Shown: in pieces, positions 7,194 to 51,231 of the stretch
How positions within the stretch are numbered: position 1 is the stretch's first letter
Layout: each line of letters starts with the position of its first letter
Source of the DNA: an uncultured Alphaproteobacteria bacterium
Lineage (GTDB): Bacteria; Pseudomonadota; Alphaproteobacteria; CAAHEQ01; UBA3637
DNA length: 64,000 nt
Assembly (NCBI GenBank): GCA_934203105.1
Contig: CAKPYQ010000002.1
Span: 8,277-72,276 of the forward strand
Direction of reading: 5' to 3'
Notes under the pieces: model-generated
Database searches by the model: none
Told to the model about the DNA's origin: nothing
What the model saw: the letters and a program-made list of their open reading frames with translations, nothing else
Translations under genes and position numbers: made by a program

Positions 7194-7299
7194 GCTTTAA
7201 ACCATAATTAAATATTCTTTTTTTTTAAGGTGCTATTGCTTTTTTGATAAAGCATCAGCACCTTTTACCTTGTATCTTTTTTTAATTTGGAGGGTAAAA

Positions 7300-7908
7300 A
7301 TGAAAAAGAAATTATTTTTAAGTACCGGTTTTGCTTTTATGTGTTTGTTGGCTTTGCCGGCAATGGCGGACTGTGTTTGCGGTTCGGCGGGTTGCAAGCC
7401 GTGCGATGATTCACAAGATTATTTGGAAGATGTCGGCAAGCATATGAAAAAGCAAGCTAAACGCTTAAACAAGCACATAGCAATTAAAAAACAAGCCAAA
7501 GCAAAGATTTCTCCTTGCGCCGATATAGCGCCCGAGTTTTGGGAAGAAGAGGCCGAAGTTTTGGATAAAAACGGAAATGTGATTTTGTATTATGCTGATT
7601 TGGTGGAAGAAGACACGGTTGCTTTGACGGCCGAACAACAGGCAAAAGCCAAAACAGATGCTGCGTCATTGAAGCAGGCGGGACAAAAGTTAAAAGAAAA
7701 TGCGGCCAAGCAAAAAGCGGAGTGTGCCGAAATTTTAACGTCTGTCAGCGAAGAAGTTATTCCGGTTCAAGCTCAAAACGGCAAACATAAAAAGATGATT
7801 AAATCCAAACGTGCGCAAGGCGAGTTGGTTTGGTTGGACGCTATGGAGAAAAACGGTGACATGTTGATCGAAGTCGGCGATTTTATCGATACCAATATGA
7901 CGAAATAA
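7300..7908 (+). CDS. Secreted hypothetical protein (signal peptide, CxCGSAGCKPC motif, Lys/Ala-rich)
   Basis: The sequence MKKKLFLSTGFAFMCLLALPAMA is followed by DCVCGSAGCKPC. A GGAGGG ribosome-binding site precedes it. No family was recognised. Confidence 0.5.
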   Translation: MKKKLFLSTGFAFMCLLALPAMADCVCGSAGCKPCDDSQDYLEDVGKHMKKQAKRLNKHIAIKKQAKAKISPCADIAPEFWEEEAEVLDKNGNVILYYADLVEEDTVALTAEQQAKAKTDAASLKQAGQKLKENAAKQKAECAEILTSVSEEVIPVQAQNGKHKKMIKSKRAQGELVWLDAMEKNGDMLIEVGDFIDTNMTK

Positions 7909-8435: not shown

Positions 8436-8546
8436 GAAAGGTCAAAGCTTTTTAATCCTGATGGATTCCCTCCTTTTAAAAGCCTTGACCATAGCGAATA
8501 TATAGGGGGCAAGGCAGATAAATACAAGACTGAACAAAAGTTCAGG

Positions 8547-8747
8547 TTATCGCACTTTTCCGGTTAATTTGTAATACAAGCGATCAAGCCAAGTAATTTT
8601 ATGCCAACGTTTTAATGTTTTCAACGCTTGTTTTTCGCATTCGGCGGCGGACACGGTGATTTTGTGTTCAACAGCGCCGTCACCTGTCTGATAAATGTGA
8701 TGAATATATTTTGGATTTTGGGGATCATTAAATATTTTGGACTTCAT
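8547..8747 (-). CDS. Small hypothetical protein (66 aa)
   Basis: An ORF in a low-GC segment, convergent with the msrA-like gene. No recognisable family. It could be spurious. Confidence 0.3.
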   Translation of the reverse strand: MKSKIFNDPQNPKYIHHIYQTGDGAVEHKITVSAAECEKQALKTLKRWHKITWLDRLYYKLTGKVR

Positions 8748-8838
8748 TCTAATACCTGAGGATAAATGGCATTTTTTAGTTGCTTTTCGATCATTTTATA
8801 TTATAATGCTTTCGTTTTTTTATAAAAAAGGAGGGCAT

Positions 8839-9726
8839 ATGAGACAAGATTTTACAGTACTTACGGAACTATGTAAAGAAAAAAATATTCCTTTTCGTAT
8901 TATTCACGACAGCGGAAATATTGTAGAAATCAAATCAAATACCGGAGCCGCTTACTTATTTATAATGGGAGCAACTCCTTTTGATTCGAATTCCGTTGTT
9001 TCTTTGTGTAAAGATAAAGAATTTTTCTATAATTACTATAAAAATGCCGTTGATATGCCCAAAACAAAAGGCTTTTTAAACCCAAACTGCGCACAAGAAT
9101 GGAAAAACTATTTAAAGTTTTCGAGTATGGAGGAAGTTATAAAGGATAGCGAAAAAAATTTTTCCTATCCTTTTATTGCAAAAATGAACAAAGGATCGCA
9201 AGGAAAATGCGTTTTTAAAGTTCATAACAGAGACGAGTTCACAACGGCTTTAAACGAAATTTATAAAGAAGACTATGTTGCTCTTTTGCAAGATTGCATT
9301 GATATCAAAAGCGAATACAGAGTTATTTATTTGAACAAAAAATTGATGTTTGCTTATAAGAAAAATAATGAACATGCAGTTTTTACGGGCAACCTCAGTC
9401 CTTTGCATTTTGAAGGTGCGTTTGCTGAAATTGTCGAGAACCAGAATTTGTTAAATGCGTTTGATAAGTTTGTTCAGCCGATGTTAAAGCAAAAAGATAT
9501 TCCTTATTGTGGTTTGGATATTGTTTTGGATAAGGATAATAAAATGTGGTTGATCGAGGGAAATTGTTCCCCCGGTTTTGGTTATTTGCTTCAAAATCCG
9601 AAAGGAGAGTCTTTACTGAAAGGTCTTTATACAGAAATGTTTAAGACTTTGGGTGTATTGCCTCAAAATGAATATAGCTATTTATTAGATTTTTGGCAGA
9701 AAAATAATCAAAATGTCAGGTGTTAA
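8839..9726 (+). CDS. ATP-grasp domain protein (RimK/glutathione synthetase-like ligase of unknown substrate)
   Basis: The likely start is MRQDF, with a GGAGGG ribosome-binding site. The track ORF begins further upstream. The ATP-grasp signatures are KGSQGKCVFKV, the E/D-rich loop and CGLDIVLDKDNKMWLIEGNCSPGF. The segment has lower GC than its neighbours. Confidence 0.6.
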   Translation: MRQDFTVLTELCKEKNIPFRIIHDSGNIVEIKSNTGAAYLFIMGATPFDSNSVVSLCKDKEFFYNYYKNAVDMPKTKGFLNPNCAQEWKNYLKFSSMEEVIKDSEKNFSYPFIAKMNKGSQGKCVFKVHNRDEFTTALNEIYKEDYVALLQDCIDIKSEYRVIYLNKKLMFAYKKNNEHAVFTGNLSPLHFEGAFAEIVENQNLLNAFDKFVQPMLKQKDIPYCGLDIVLDKDNKMWLIEGNCSPGFGYLLQNPKGESLLKGLYTEMFKTLGVLPQNEYSYLLDFWQKNNQNVRC

Positions 9727-9778
9727 GCTTGAAACAGCGTGAAAAAAATAAAGGGCGGAAATTTCCGTCCTTTGTTTA

Positions 9779-9853
9779 TGGTGGGTGTAACTGGGTTCGA
9801 ACCAGTGGCCCCTACGATGTGAACGTAGTGCTCTACCGCTGAGCTATACACCC
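9779..9853 (-). tRNA. tRNA-Val (anticodon CAC)
   Basis: The reverse complement folds as a cloverleaf: GGGTGTA acceptor, GCTC/GAGC D-stem, CTACG-TTCACAT-CGTAG anticodon arm, ACTGG-TTCGAAC-CCAGT T-arm and an encoded CCA. Confidence 0.85.
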
Positions 9854-9901
9854 AAAAGCGTTTTCATTTATATTCTTTTTAATTGCGCTTGTCAATAGCC
9901 A

Positions 9902-9931
9902 AATGAATTATTTTTCATTTTTTTGCAAAAT
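9902..9931. repeat. 30-bp direct repeat, copy 1 (a duplicate of the 3' end of the Sel1 gene at 10744)
   Basis: The sequence aatgaattatttttcatttttttgcaaaat is identical to 10738-10767. Confidence 0.8.
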
Positions 9932-10168
9932 ATGCACCGAAAACAAAAATCTATTTTTCTCCGAATTTAATAGATATTGCATATTTAAATGCTGATATTA
10001 ATCATCCTACATTAAAATACTTTACATCATCCGAAAAATGGAGAATTTCGTTAATTTGAGGATGCAACATTGGTTTTCCCCCCCATTTTTTGTTGCCTTT
10101 TTTATATTTTTCTATATACTAGAAGTTAATGGTATATGACTATAAACTACATGTCAAGGAGATTATTT

Positions 10169-10603
10169 ATGGAAAGATTTAAGTGTCCTATTGGCGTCTT
10201 TTTGCTTTTAAAGAAAGATGATAAATTGTATTTACAATTAAGAAAAAATTGTTCTTTTGAAGGAATGTATGGAGCAATAGGAGGACATGTGGATGGTGGA
10301 GAAACTATTGCTGCTGCTGTTATAAGGGAAGCAAAAGAAGAAGTTGGCATTGAAATATCTGACAAGGATTTACACGTAGCAACAATATGTCATTCTAATG
10401 CAGGGGGTAAAGAATATATGCAGTTTTTCTTTACTTGTGAAAAGTGGAATGGGATAGTAGAAAATAAAGAACTAGATAAATGTGAGCAAATAGATTTGTA
10501 CGATATAAATAACCTTCCACAAAATGTGGTTCCTTATCTAAAAGGGGCTATTGAAAAAATCAATTCAGGAGAGATCTTTTTTGAAGATGGCTTTGACAAA
10601 TGA
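10169..10603 (+). CDS. Nudix hydrolase
   Basis: The Nudix box is GGHVDGGETIAAAVIREAKEEVGIE. An AAGGAG ribosome-binding site lies before the ATG at 10169. GC is very low (about 30%). Confidence 0.7.
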   Translation: MERFKCPIGVFLLLKKDDKLYLQLRKNCSFEGMYGAIGGHVDGGETIAAAVIREAKEEVGIEISDKDLHVATICHSNAGGKEYMQFFFTCEKWNGIVENKELDKCEQIDLYDINNLPQNVVPYLKGAIEKINSGEIFFEDGFDK

Positions 10604-10683
10604 TTATAATTATAACGGGTAAGGCAGGAGCAGGAAAGACAACATTGCGAAAACTTTTGTTAGAAAAATTCACTTATTTTTGA
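10600..10683 (+). pseudogene. Truncated remnant of a P-loop NTPase/kinase gene. Only the 27 N-terminal codons remain.
   Basis: It encodes MIIIITGKAGAGKTTLRKLLLEKFTYF*, a Walker A motif followed by an early stop. It overlaps the Nudix stop codon. Confidence 0.45.
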
Positions 10684-10737
10684 TGTTTTGTGTACCCCCT
10701 AAAATGGCGGATTTTGGTCAAAAAAAGTCCTTTATTC

Positions 10738-10767
10738 AATGAATTATTTTTCATTTTTTTGCAAAAT
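10738..10767. repeat. 30-bp direct repeat, copy 2 (the authentic 3' end of the Sel1 gene)
   Basis: Identical to 9902-9931. Confidence 0.8.
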
Positions 10768-11454
10768 TGGTTGCAATTCATTGACTTTTTTTGCCCCTTC
10801 CATCAATTGCGGCATCGTCATTTGTCCGGCTACTTCTTTAATGGCCTTTAATAAATCGTCTTGGCTGGCTTTCATCGCGGGGTGATTATAGGATAAAGTC
10901 AACCATACATACGCACACGTAAAGTTTTCTTGTGTGACGCAAAATTCCGCCATTTCTAACATAGCTTCCGGATCAGCAGCCAATGCCCGCAATTCAGTTT
11001 CTTTAATCGTATTTTCTTTATCTTGAACGGCTTTGATTTTGGCGATTTTATCCTCTGCTTCGTCCTTTAATTTTTCATCGTCGCTTGACAAAACTTTTTC
11101 ATAATAAGCAATGGCTTTATCGGCTGATATTTCCGTTCCGCGCCCGTTGGCGTACATATTCGCTACCGCCATTTGTGATAAAGGATTCTTTTCGGCCGAC
11201 TTTAAATATAATTCAAAAGCTTTCTTTTCGTCTTTTTCAACGGCTTTACCTTCCTCATACATCGATGCGGCTAAATACATTGCAACGCTGTTGCCTTTTT
11301 CAATCAACGGCTCTAATAACCCGACAGACGCCGCAGATTGAATGTTCAACATTTCCATTTGCGGGGCAATTTCTTGATAATCTTCCTGTAACGTGGAACA
11401 AAATGCGCCCGATGCACACAAACAAAGCGATAATGCAATATATGATATTTTCAT
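10744..11454 (-). CDS. Sel1-like repeat protein with signal peptide
   Basis: The signal peptide is MKISYIALSLCLCASGAFC. Sel1 units follow (AASMYEEGKAVEKDEKKAFELYLKSAE, MAVANMYANGRGTEISADKAIAYYEK). Confidence 0.7.
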   Translation of the reverse strand: MKISYIALSLCLCASGAFCSTLQEDYQEIAPQMEMLNIQSAASVGLLEPLIEKGNSVAMYLAASMYEEGKAVEKDEKKAFELYLKSAEKNPLSQMAVANMYANGRGTEISADKAIAYYEKVLSSDDEKLKDEAEDKIAKIKAVQDKENTIKETELRALAADPEAMLEMAEFCVTQENFTCAYVWLTLSYNHPAMKASQDDLLKAIKEVAGQMTMPQLMEGAKKVNELQPILQKNEK

Positions 11455-11641
11455 TTTAAACAGACTCCTTTTTTAAGTTCTATTTTTAAACGAAGCGGTA
11501 AAAAATGTCAATAAATAAAAAAAATATATTATTTTTTGATGTTTTGACTTGACGAAAGTTTATTTTCATACTATCTGAATAAACACAAAGCCTTTCGTAT
11601 AGGGCTTTAAAGGATTTTTAAAAAACAGAAAGGAAAAGAAA

Positions 11642-11932
11642 ATGAAATTTAAACCTTTATTGGACAGAGTTGTTATTCGTCGTATCGAAGAAGAAAAAAA
11701 GACGGCCGGCGGATTGATCATTCCGGATACGGCAAAGGAAAAGCCGTCGCAAGGTATTGTGATTGCCGTAGGGCCGGGTGGTCGTGATGACGAAGGCAAG
11801 CCGGTAACAATGACTTTAAAGGAAGGTGATCGCGTTTTGTTCGGCAAATGGTCGGGAACGGAAATCAAGCTGGACGGCGAAGAATTGTTGATTATGCGTG
11901 AAGCTGATATCTTGGGTATTATTGAAGTTTAA
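11642..11932 (+). CDS. groES: Co-chaperonin GroES
   Basis: [35 protein letters not shown]... Confidence 0.95.
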
Positions 11933-49950: not shown

Positions 49951-51231
49951 ATGTCATCGCTTTTTTGTTTTGAAAGCTTTAATTGGAACGAGCAGACTGG
50001 GCTTTTATCTTTGTTTTATTCGTGTCAAGGCTATCGCTTTGAAGAGCGGATTGCGTTCCCCGACGCTCCCTTTTGTTTAACGCAAGAGCGCCAAAAAGCG
50101 CTTGATCAAGTGTTCTTTTTATTGCATATTGCGGCCGGGGTCAGTTATTATAAAGCTTTCGGCAATCCCGCAATCCAAATCCGCAGCGGTGTTTTGACAA
50201 AAGATCAAGCTGCCTTTTTCAATGATTTTTATTATTTCGGATTGGGGCAATTTGCGGCCGAAAACCATTTAAAACTAAAGTTTGATTTTCCTTTTGGATC
50301 GGACAGAGAAAAAATGTTTGATTTACCGCTTGGATCGGGCGCGTTTGTTCCGGTTGGCGGTGGCAAAGATAGTTGCGTTACAATTACGCGTTTACAGCGC
50401 GCGCAAATTCCAACGACTTTATTTTCAGTCAATACAGCGCGCCCGATTGAAGATTGCAAACGAATCTCCAACTTACCGGAAGTGACGATTTGGCGTACAA
50501 TCAGCCCGGTTTTATTAGAAAACAACGATCATTTTTTAAACGGGCATGTGCCCATTTCCGGCATCATCGCTTTTATCAGCGCGGCGGCGTGCATTTTATA
50601 TGATAAGCGTTTCGTTGTAATGAGCTGTGAAGGGTCTGCGGACGAAGCGAACTTTAAGGATGTCAACCATCAATGGAGCAAATCATCGGCTTTTGAGCTT
50701 GCTTTTGGTGCTTTAATGGCAAAGATATTGCCTTCTTTTCGATACTTTTCATTGCTGCGATCGATGAGCGAAATGCAAATAGCGGCCTCTTTTGCCAAAA
50801 ACTGTGCCGATTACTTTGATGTGTTTACCAGTTGCAATCACGCTTTTCATATTGACAAAAGCAAACGATTGTTGCGTTGGTGCGGAAAATGCGATAAATG
50901 CCGATTTGTTTTTTTGATTTTAGCGCCTTTTATGCCGAAAGAAAAATTGATTGAAATTATCGGTCAAAACCCGCTTGATGATCCGGCGCAAGAGCAGGGC
51001 TATTTGGCTTTGCTGGGGCTTGGGCAATCAAAACCGTTTGAATGCGTCGGCACTTATGATGAATGTCGGTTGGCTTTTTTAATGTTGTCCAAGCGTGAAA
51101 ATTGGCAATCGGATTATTTAATTCAAAAATTGTCACCTCTTTTAAAAGATTATTCAATAGAAACGTTAGAAAAAAAGGTCTGGGCAACCGGCAGAACAGA
51201 TTTGATTCCAAAGGAGTTTTTAAATGTTTGA
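49951..51231 (+). CDS. Hypothetical PP-loop (SGGxDS-like GGGKDS) protein, translationally coupled to murD. Candidate MurL-type UDP-MurNAc-L-Ala-L-Glu epimerase.
   Basis: The protein is 426 aa. VPVGGGKDSCVTI resembles the ATP pyrophosphatase P-loop. Its stop overlaps the murD start by 8 nt. The functional assignment is an inference from context and motif only. Confidence 0.4.
   Translation: MSSLFCFESFNWNEQTGLLSLFYSCQGYRFEERIAFPDAPFCLTQERQKALDQVFFLLHIAAGVSYYKAFGNPAIQIRSGVLTKDQAAFFNDFYYFGLGQFAAENHLKLKFDFPFGSDREKMFDLPLGSGAFVPVGGGKDSCVTITRLQRAQIPTTLFSVNTARPIEDCKRISNLPEVTIWRTISPVLLENNDHFLNGHVPISGIIAFISAAACILYDKRFVVMSCEGSADEANFKDVNHQWSKSSAFELAFGALMAKILPSFRYFSLLRSMSEMQIAASFAKNCADYFDVFTSCNHAFHIDKSKRLLRWCGKCDKCRFVFLILAPFMPKEKLIEIIGQNPLDDPAQEQGYLALLGLGQSKPFECVGTYDECRLAFLMLSKRENWQSDYLIQKLSPLLKDYSIETLEKKVWATGRTDLIPKEFLNV

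Follow-up and report, generated by a model that had tools for sequence, protein, structure and literature searches.

Here we show that an 836-bp, AT-rich segment in the genome of an uncultured alphaproteobacterium, lying between a tRNA-Val gene and the 3' end of a gene for a Sel1-repeat protein, is very probably the eroded remnant of a ~3.2-kb insert of four genes. The segment was found in a 64,000-nt stretch of contig CAKPYQ010000002.1 (assembly GCA_934203105.1), hereafter the window. The same species is polymorphic at this site, which can be empty, hold the 836-bp remnant or hold the full block. Insertion and decay of the block are demonstrated; its site-specific integration is plausible and unproven.

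Results

A direct repeat encloses a low-GC segment

The window contains exactly two copies of the 30-mer AATGAATTATTTTTCATTTTTTTGCAAAAT, at 9902-9931 and 10738-10767 (spacing 836), with no further copy at up to three mismatches anywhere in the 64 kb. They enclose a low-GC gene for a Nudix hydrolase and a 22-codon stub with a P-loop, and the GC content between them is 31.5%, versus 41.0% for the whole window. Both coordinates of the exact repeat described in the original prediction were therefore confirmed, with one correction to the composition of the second copy: it consists of 6 nt after the Sel1 stop, the stop itself and the final 7 sense codons, and not of the last eight codons plus stop.

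It is virtually impossible that the two copies arose by chance, belong to a dispersed motif or reflect faulty assembly, and so lack biological meaning. In favour of such an explanation, the surrounding sequence has low complexity and a high AT content, and a second weak repeat nearby is only marginal. Against this, none of 100 dinucleotide-preserving shuffles contained a match to the 30-mer (0 expected by chance), only two copies are present in the window, and the window structure was recovered at 100% identity in independent assemblies (ENA ERZ28614815, Logan ERR7738167). Agreement between independent assemblies from several samples means that the structure is not an assembly artefact, and the explanation is refuted by the empty and full alleles, which account exactly for the repeat.

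Three alleles coexist at one site

Alleles were collected by exact-protein look-up of the Sel1 and Nudix proteins, followed by some members of their 90%-identity clusters (13 members for Sel1, 18 for Nudix) and close homologues; the exact Sel1 protein is present on several public contigs. In the empty allele, tRNA-Val is followed by 48 nt, a single repeat copy and Sel1 (L021, a 101-kb ENA contig, L024 and 10 similar places). Its sequence runs from tRNA-Val through CAATAGCCA, the 30-mer and CGGTTGCAATTC to Sel1, with flanks identical to those of the window, so that Sel1 does adjoin tRNA-Val when the insert is absent, as had been predicted. The remnant form seen in the window recurs on three contigs from other samples (L022, L023 and L025).

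The full allele is found on contig L028 (Logan SRR25477412), where msrA, a 66-amino-acid (aa) open reading frame (ORF), an ATP-grasp gene, tRNA-Val, 48 nt and a 55-nt repeat copy precede the block. The block itself encodes an S66 LD-carboxypeptidase (305 aa), a radical SAM protein on the opposite strand (318 aa), the Nudix hydrolase and a guanylate-kinase-like protein (200 aa). A second contig, L015 (Logan SRR8732217, 3293 nt), holds the same full block at 97.5% identity to L028. Both full-length alleles match the window at 98% nucleotide identity, bearing out the suggestion that the insert is a decayed remnant. The GC content of the full block is 29%, versus 41% for the window. Neither a duplication without cargo nor a dispersed motif, which had been named beforehand as findings that would speak against an insert, was seen.

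The full alleles also reveal the original size of the duplication. The right-hand repeat unit (R2) spans 6 nt past the Sel1 stop, the stop codon, the final 15 codons and a single base of the codon before them, and its first 30 nt are the exact duplicate of the left-hand copy (R1) as found in the window. Contig L015 opens with the final 30 nt of the 55-mer and closes with its initial 30 nt, ends that are the output of a k=31 de Bruijn assembly between two 55-nt repeats; the original duplication was thus 55 bp and not 30. Coordinates of all features are collected in Table 1.

Four deletions separate the remnant from the full block

Comparison with L015 by blastn resolved the window allele into four colinear blocks, as left when four internal stretches are deleted from the full allele; two of these deletions lie at repeats of 14-17 nt and two at 3-4-nt microhomologies. 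At the first junction (J1), R1 is fused to a look-alike sequence inside the S66 gene (TC[A/T]TTTTTTTGCAAAAT, 14 nt exact), and this deletion took the last 25 nt of R1 (55 to 30) together with ~370 nt of the block, among them the 5' portion of the S66 gene. It is the J1 deletion that leaves a left repeat of only 30 nt in the window; the 30-bp boundary of the original prediction is accordingly secondary to the 55-bp duplication, the left copy of which was shortened later. At J2, with a CAT microhomology, 1.1 kb was lost, comprising the remaining S66 sequence and the 3' portion of the radical SAM gene. At J3 (CATT), the missing 0.25 kb contained the 5' portion of the radical SAM gene, of which a 56-nt internal fragment is left. 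At J4, a 17-nt repeat (AAAATT[A/C]ACTAATTTTT) accompanies the loss of 663 nt, with 22 codons of the kinase gene left behind. Of the block, only the Nudix gene and the region upstream of it were left untouched by deletions. A small hairpin in the block tail is weakened in the window strain. All four junctions are shared by L022 and L023, which points to a single origin of the remnant allele.

Table 1 Features of the locus and related regions (window positions unless a contig is named)
Feature	Position	Strand	Basis and remarks
tRNA-Val(CAC)	9779-9853	-	ARAGORN; Rfam tRNA 70.1 bits; left border of variable site
Candidate tRNA-Val promoter	9867-9895	-	TTGACA 9895-9890, 17-nt spacer, TATAAA 9872-9867; read by eye
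R1, left direct repeat	9902-9931		Free-standing copy of Sel1 3' end; 30 nt here, 55 nt in full-length alleles (L028)
S66 LD-carboxypeptidase internal fragment, 99 nt	9932-10030	+	blastn; L015/L028 gene calls, PF02016/PF17676
Radical SAM gene fragment, 56 nt	10028-10083	-	blastn, 91% to L015; junctions J2, J3
Radical SAM-Nudix intergenic region, kept	10086-10168	+	98% identical to L015 from 1932 on
Nudix hydrolase gene, 144 aa, MutT-like, intact	10169-10603	+	PF00293 2.3e-13; PDB MutT/Nudix matches
Guanylate-kinase-like gene, 5' stub	10600-10683	+	27-aa ORF MIIIITGKAGAGKTTLRKLLLEKFTYF; Walker A; ATGA overlap with Nudix stop
Block tail remainder, last 56 nt of 215-nt non-coding tail	10682-10737	+	98% match to L015
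R2, right direct repeat	10738-10792		Full 55-nt unit; 55-nt copy at L028 1860-1914 matches 54/55; L015 contig ends also fit
Sel1-repeat protein gene, 236 aa	10744-11454	-	PF08238 2e-12; intact in all three alleles
Block 1	9915-10030		L015 403-518; 99%; blastn
Block 2	10028-10083		L015 1622-1677; 91%; blastn
Block 3	10086-10681		L015 1932-2527; 98%; blastn
Block 4	10665-10767		L015 3191-3293; 98%; blastn
Four-gene + HSP70-like cluster	L013 255-4586; L030 5455-9870; L031 63-4478		

The retained Nudix gene

The Nudix protein scores 50.7 bits against PF00293 (cut-off 21.1) and below the cut-off against every NCBIfam equivalog. Its Nudix box is complete: GGHVDGGETIAAAVIREAKEEVGI fits GX5EX7REUXEEXGU (G-HVDGG-E-TIAAAVI-RE-A-K-EE-V-G-I). 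The reading frame is listed as 10136/10169-10603, and the 144-aa form is on public record while the 155-aa form is not; upstream of the ATG at 10169 lie a promoter-like TTGCCT-16-TATACT at 10093-10120, picked up by a promoter scan, and an AGGAG ribosome-binding site.

For the window gene, the ratio of nonsynonymous to synonymous substitution rates (dN/dS) comes to 0.045 against its homologue on L016, 0.116 against that on L009 and 0.13 against the full-allele copy on L028; the Nudix gene is under purifying selection. In the L016 lineage, distinct from that of the window (Nudix 85% aa identity), the kinase gene is cut after 9 codons (MIVIITGKA) and the Nudix gene is intact. The window and L016 are thus two independent cases that argue for selective retention of the Nudix gene.

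Two further observations concern the surroundings of Nudix homologues. On L016 (1808-2044), a tRNA-Asp gene comes after the Nudix gene. On L009 (4306-8435), a 79%-identical homologue directly follows a helix-turn-helix (HTH)-HipA toxin-antitoxin pair, an acetyltransferase, a histidine phosphatase and a 193-aa ORF with a Phage_integrase domain, so that Nudix genes of this family also occur in surroundings that are clearly accessory or mobile.

The kinase stub and the four-gene module

Homology of the kinase stub is limited to its first 22 codons (10600-10665), after which unrelated sequence leads to a stop; it ends at J4 (10665-10681). The stub MIIIITGKAGAGKTTLRKLLLE aligns to the N-terminus of a 197-200-aa protein encoded directly after Nudix on L013, L015 and L028, matching MIVIIVGKAGVGKTTLRKALLE of the 197-aa L013 protein as well as the 200-aa proteins of L015 and L028. 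The intact 200-aa parent scores 53 bits against PF00625 (cut-off 25.2) and 84 against the NCBIfam guanylate kinase equivalog (cut-off 160), with matches to guanylate kinases in PDB down to 2.6e-14 and to the phage "guanylate kinase" phrog_1815 at 1e-33. As the Pfam threshold is passed and that of the equivalog is not, we call the protein guanylate-kinase-like. The 10600-10683 ORF lacks a complete kinase domain with P-loop, nucleoside-monophosphate (NMP)-binding and lid regions; what is left is the 22 homologous codons with the P-loop. The stub had rightly been taken for the start of a nucleotide kinase gene downstream of Nudix, and comparison with homologues places its parent among guanylate-kinase-like proteins and not with NadR or zeta toxin, two of the parents that had been suggested as examples.

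The kinase and the S66 protein both have their best profile matches in phage protein families. The radical SAM protein belongs to a conserved, unnamed family with homologues at 45-53% identity in metagenome-assembled genomes (MAGs) of Alphaproteobacteria, Bacteroidales and Patescibacteria; relatives were absent from IMG/VR, and JGI metagenomes gave a single match at 23% identity. An invariant CX3CX2C and three near-invariant C-terminal cysteines mark the family. The predicted structure (predicted local distance difference test, pLDDT, 93.5) is about equally similar to several enzymes of the SPASM/twitch type (SuiB, BlsE, MoaA, anSME and viperins), at template modelling (TM) scores of 0.5-0.64, and a Foldseek search with this model ranked SuiB, BlsE and MoaA above viperins. 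Weak matches to PADLOC profiles were also obtained (pVip 3e-13, VakA 3e-8, PDC-S07 1e-9). We rejected the possibility that the block is a prokaryotic viperin (pVip) system: the score against NF038283 is 37.5 bits versus a cut-off of 180, and the PADLOC match is confined to 104 of 257 profile positions at the N-terminus, corresponding to the generic radical SAM core.

In other alphaproteobacterial MAGs (L013 and L030/L031, the latter GCA_025800285.1), these four genes recur at unrelated loci with an HSP70-like gene (~440 aa) behind them, and this recurrence indicates that the block is a functional module. No characterised member of the radical SAM family or of the four-gene cluster was found, and a literature search on the gene combination returned no paper.

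Arrival, age and loss of the block

Two outgroup species carry no block at this locus. In one of them (L001) Sel1 adjoins msrA, with no tRNA gene nearby; in the other (L027) Sel1 and tRNA-Val are separated by a MORN-repeat gene, and no duplication of the Sel1 3' end was found around it. The position of the block at this locus is therefore derived. The original insertion would have been a single, Campbell-type crossover of a circular intermediate at the 55-bp site in an ancestor of the species, which would keep the Sel1 C-terminus on one side and the upstream region of the tRNA-Val promoter on the other. A recombinase acting in trans, or one that has since disappeared, may have catalysed the event, or it may have taken place by homologous recombination. 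Parts of the block would then have been removed at short repeats, by replication slippage or by illegitimate recombination, as is usual when dispensable DNA decays by deletion; the Nudix gene would have been spared since it was still useful, and recombination between the two repeats could excise the whole insert scarlessly. The tRNA gene itself does not qualify as the target, given that the insert lies upstream of its 5' end.

The inserts of L015 and L028 are 2.5% different over 3.1 kb, and strain flanks differ by 1-3%. An insert about as diverged as its flanks is probably old, its residence in the species roughly matching the time over which the strains have diverged, and empty sites may then be secondary losses via repeat recombination. 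On the left flank, the empty allele L021 shows 26-27 differences from the remnant alleles L022 and L023, and any of these three shows 41-43 from the window, which weakly suggests that the empty state of L021 may have arisen from the remnant through repeat-repeat recombination. At least some empty alleles probably represent the last step of loss and not the state before insertion, and a series from full through remnant to empty is the simplest reading, not a proven one. The polarity of the empty site is ambiguous by nature, in that repeat recombination would yield the same sequence as an unoccupied site.

A number of observations weigh against this account of arrival and stepwise loss. L022 and L023 differ at 7 sites on the left flank and at 51 on the right; recombination near the locus is evident from this, and the inference of polarity, including the proposed series, rests on flank distances disturbed by it and is weak. 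At J4 (equivalent to window 10671-10675), L023 carries the left-hand repeat variant (A...A) where the window and L022 carry the right-hand one (C...T), and the same deletion occurring twice, or gene conversion, is possible. Judged from one allele, chance sparing of the Nudix gene is conceivable, a notion opposed by the independent L016 case. The full block encodes no recombinase beside the S66, radical SAM, Nudix and kinase proteins, and its 215-nt tail holds neither an ORF nor a recombinase remnant. The cognate integrase whose search the original prediction had recommended was not found in the 64-kb window, either by tblastn with the L009 integrase, by a scan for the box-I motif, or by Pfam on the 20 window ORFs of 200-430 aa, all of which are housekeeping genes. 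No circular junction was observed, the contig ends of L015 fitting a circle or an integrated copy alike, and the repeat contains only weak palindromes, with non-significant folding z-scores of -1.7, -2.1 and -0.9. The crossover is accordingly a proposed mechanism, no recombinase gene having been found in either block or window. Site-specific integration, the reading offered in the original prediction, is plausible and not demonstrated: direct repeats that share a segment of the target and an empty site with a single copy speak for it, and the lack of a recombinase gene in the block speaks against it.

One alternative is that the block is an active, or recently active, element that integrates specifically at a 55-bp att site, which overlaps the 3' end of Sel1, with its tyrosine or serine recombinase encoded elsewhere or once carried, and that the empty allele is the original attB. 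A perfect direct repeat that rebuilds the 3' end of the target gene, precise empty sites, foreign composition (29% versus 41% GC), the presence of the four genes at different loci in other species, the phage-family matches of the kinase and S66 proteins and an L015 assembly graph that also fits a circle are all in keeping with this idea. We nevertheless regard it as rather unlikely: the 3.2-kb block encodes no integrase, with 46 nt separating R1 from the start codon of the S66 gene and no recombinase remnant in the tail, and the searches of the window were negative, as described above. The 30-mer is also absent from JGI metagenome contigs and IMG/VR, and the full block gave no blastn match in phage and plasmid collections. 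Divergence of the insert copies by 2.5%, like that of the flanks, argues against recent movement, and elsewhere the block looks like a resident conserved cluster and not like a cassette with repeats.

Still less probable, in our view, is an arrival without any circle, in which linear DNA from a lower-GC relative entered by homology-facilitated illegitimate recombination, or a local duplication or rearrangement duplicated 55 bp of Sel1, with only deletions thereafter. No recombinase was found in the block or the window, four illegitimate deletions at short repeats are documented at the locus, and the msrA-Sel1 interval differs in every related species examined, marking it as a rearrangement hot spot. 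Yet a 55-bp duplication that leaves both neighbours functional is more typical of a single-crossover insertion, and no donor arrangement with the block beside Sel1 and without R1 was found. One-sided homology-anchored replacement deletes recipient DNA and does not duplicate it. An insertion sequence, transposon or miniature inverted-repeat transposable element (MITE) was tried and rejected: the duplication is 55 bp long (versus 2-15), the ends TACATGTGG... and ...CCTTTATTC are not inverted repeats, and there is no transposase.

A bolder proposal, which we rate as similarly improbable, makes the repeat the attachment site of a ~3.2-kb integrase-less cassette moved in trans. Its cargo would be a conserved, uncharacterised module for nucleotide modification or detoxification, made up of a SPASM/twitch-type radical SAM enzyme, a Nudix hydrolase, a phage-like guanylate kinase and an S66 peptidase, and the Nudix gene would have been kept for an independent protective role, such as clearing a toxic nucleotide.

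Surroundings of the site

The 5' end of tRNA-Val faces the insert, 48 nt from R1, and the position of the gene is unchanged in the empty, remnant and full alleles. An Rfam search over 9600-11700 found nothing besides this tRNA. The candidate tRNA-Val promoter ends 13 nt ahead of the mature 5' end, and R1 lies directly upstream of it, where an UP element would sit; the promoter scan omits this candidate because it demands T at position 6 of the -10 hexamer.

The interval from msrA to tRNA-Val (8436-9778) is low in GC throughout (33.6%) and contains the 66-aa ORF (8547-8747, minus strand) and a RimK-like ATP-grasp gene (8737/8839-9726). It is absent from the related MAG L001, in which Sel1 adjoins msrA and no tRNA-Val is present within 10 kb. 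In the empty-site strains L021 and L024 the ATP-grasp gene is broken up into two ORFs (126 and 173 aa) and so appears to be decaying as well.

A 212-aa ORF between accC and msrA (7270-7908; 202 aa in public gene calls) has no Pfam or PHROG match and is missing from the equivalent position in L001, where the accC-msrA gap is ~100 nt. The 254-aa ORF at 21390-22154 matches only parts of the N-terminal and central UDP-glucose/GDP-mannose dehydrogenase domains; enzymes of this family are much longer than 254 aa, and the ORF may thus be a truncated pseudogene. Just upstream of a Mur-ligase-like gene, a 426-aa ORF (49951-51231) has no Pfam match at E <= 0.001. Finally, an imperfect 27-nt direct repeat (22/27, core TTTTTGATGTTTTG) at 10664-10690 and 11520-11546 straddles Sel1, with one copy at J4 and the other in the Sel1-groES spacer. 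Its local alignment score is reached by about 1 in 300 shuffles; it may be due to chance and was kept out of the model.

Discussion

The locus is a clean but ordinary accessory block lost piecemeal, and a well-documented example of known processes; it does not overturn current understanding. Its value lies in offering a nucleotide-resolution snapshot of a population shedding an accessory block, with intact, eroded and scarlessly removed alleles coexisting. It also carries two cautions for the interpretation of single genomes. An apparent target-site duplication can mislead, its length of 30 bp having been set here by a later deletion and not by integration, and an "empty site" in a relative does not necessarily represent the pre-insertion state. 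In addition, the analysis exposes a conserved cluster of S66 peptidase, radical SAM, Nudix and guanylate-kinase-like genes, often followed by an HSP70-like gene, which is worth testing by enzymologists. If the cassette moved in trans were to prove real, it would represent a new kind of mobilisable islet together with a new functional module common to gut and environmental Alphaproteobacteria, with a radical SAM family extending to Patescibacteria.

The locus can be compared with several known systems. Like prokaryotic viperin systems, the block pairs a radical SAM enzyme with a nucleoside-monophosphate-kinase-like gene; unlike them, its radical SAM protein scores under the viperin threshold, has a predicted fold no nearer to viperins than to other enzymes and is not a demonstrated viperin. 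With integron cassettes, and with integrative mobile elements exploiting Xer (IMEX), users of the host Xer system, it shares the form of a small integrase-less unit at a defined site, for which a recombinase in trans would be required. It differs from integron cassettes in lacking an attC-like structured site (fold z -0.9 to -2.1); its repeat is 55 bp of coding sequence. The 20 candidate-sized window ORFs contain no IntI or Phage_integrase domain, and inspection of the repeat by eye, without a formal test, showed no dif-like sequence.

Islands of the P4 type, integrated by tyrosine recombinases, resemble the block in that direct repeats of tens of bp copy the 3' end of the target gene and leave it intact, empty sites are precise, the cargo is of foreign composition and the site lies beside a tRNA gene. 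Here, in contrast, no allele carries an integrase, and neither arm-type repeats nor a circular form were seen; the target is the protein-coding Sel1 gene and not the tRNA, with the insert upstream of the tRNA 5' end; the full element measures only 3.2 kb, and its copies have diverged like the chromosome. Deletional decay in host-associated or reduced genomes offers a parallel to the later history of the site, in the form of four deletions with 3-17-nt junction repeats that left stubs and one useful gene, and of a possible final loss through the flanking repeats. What sets this locus apart from such decay is that the intact, half-eroded and removed states are found within one species at 96-99% identity, with each junction still readable.

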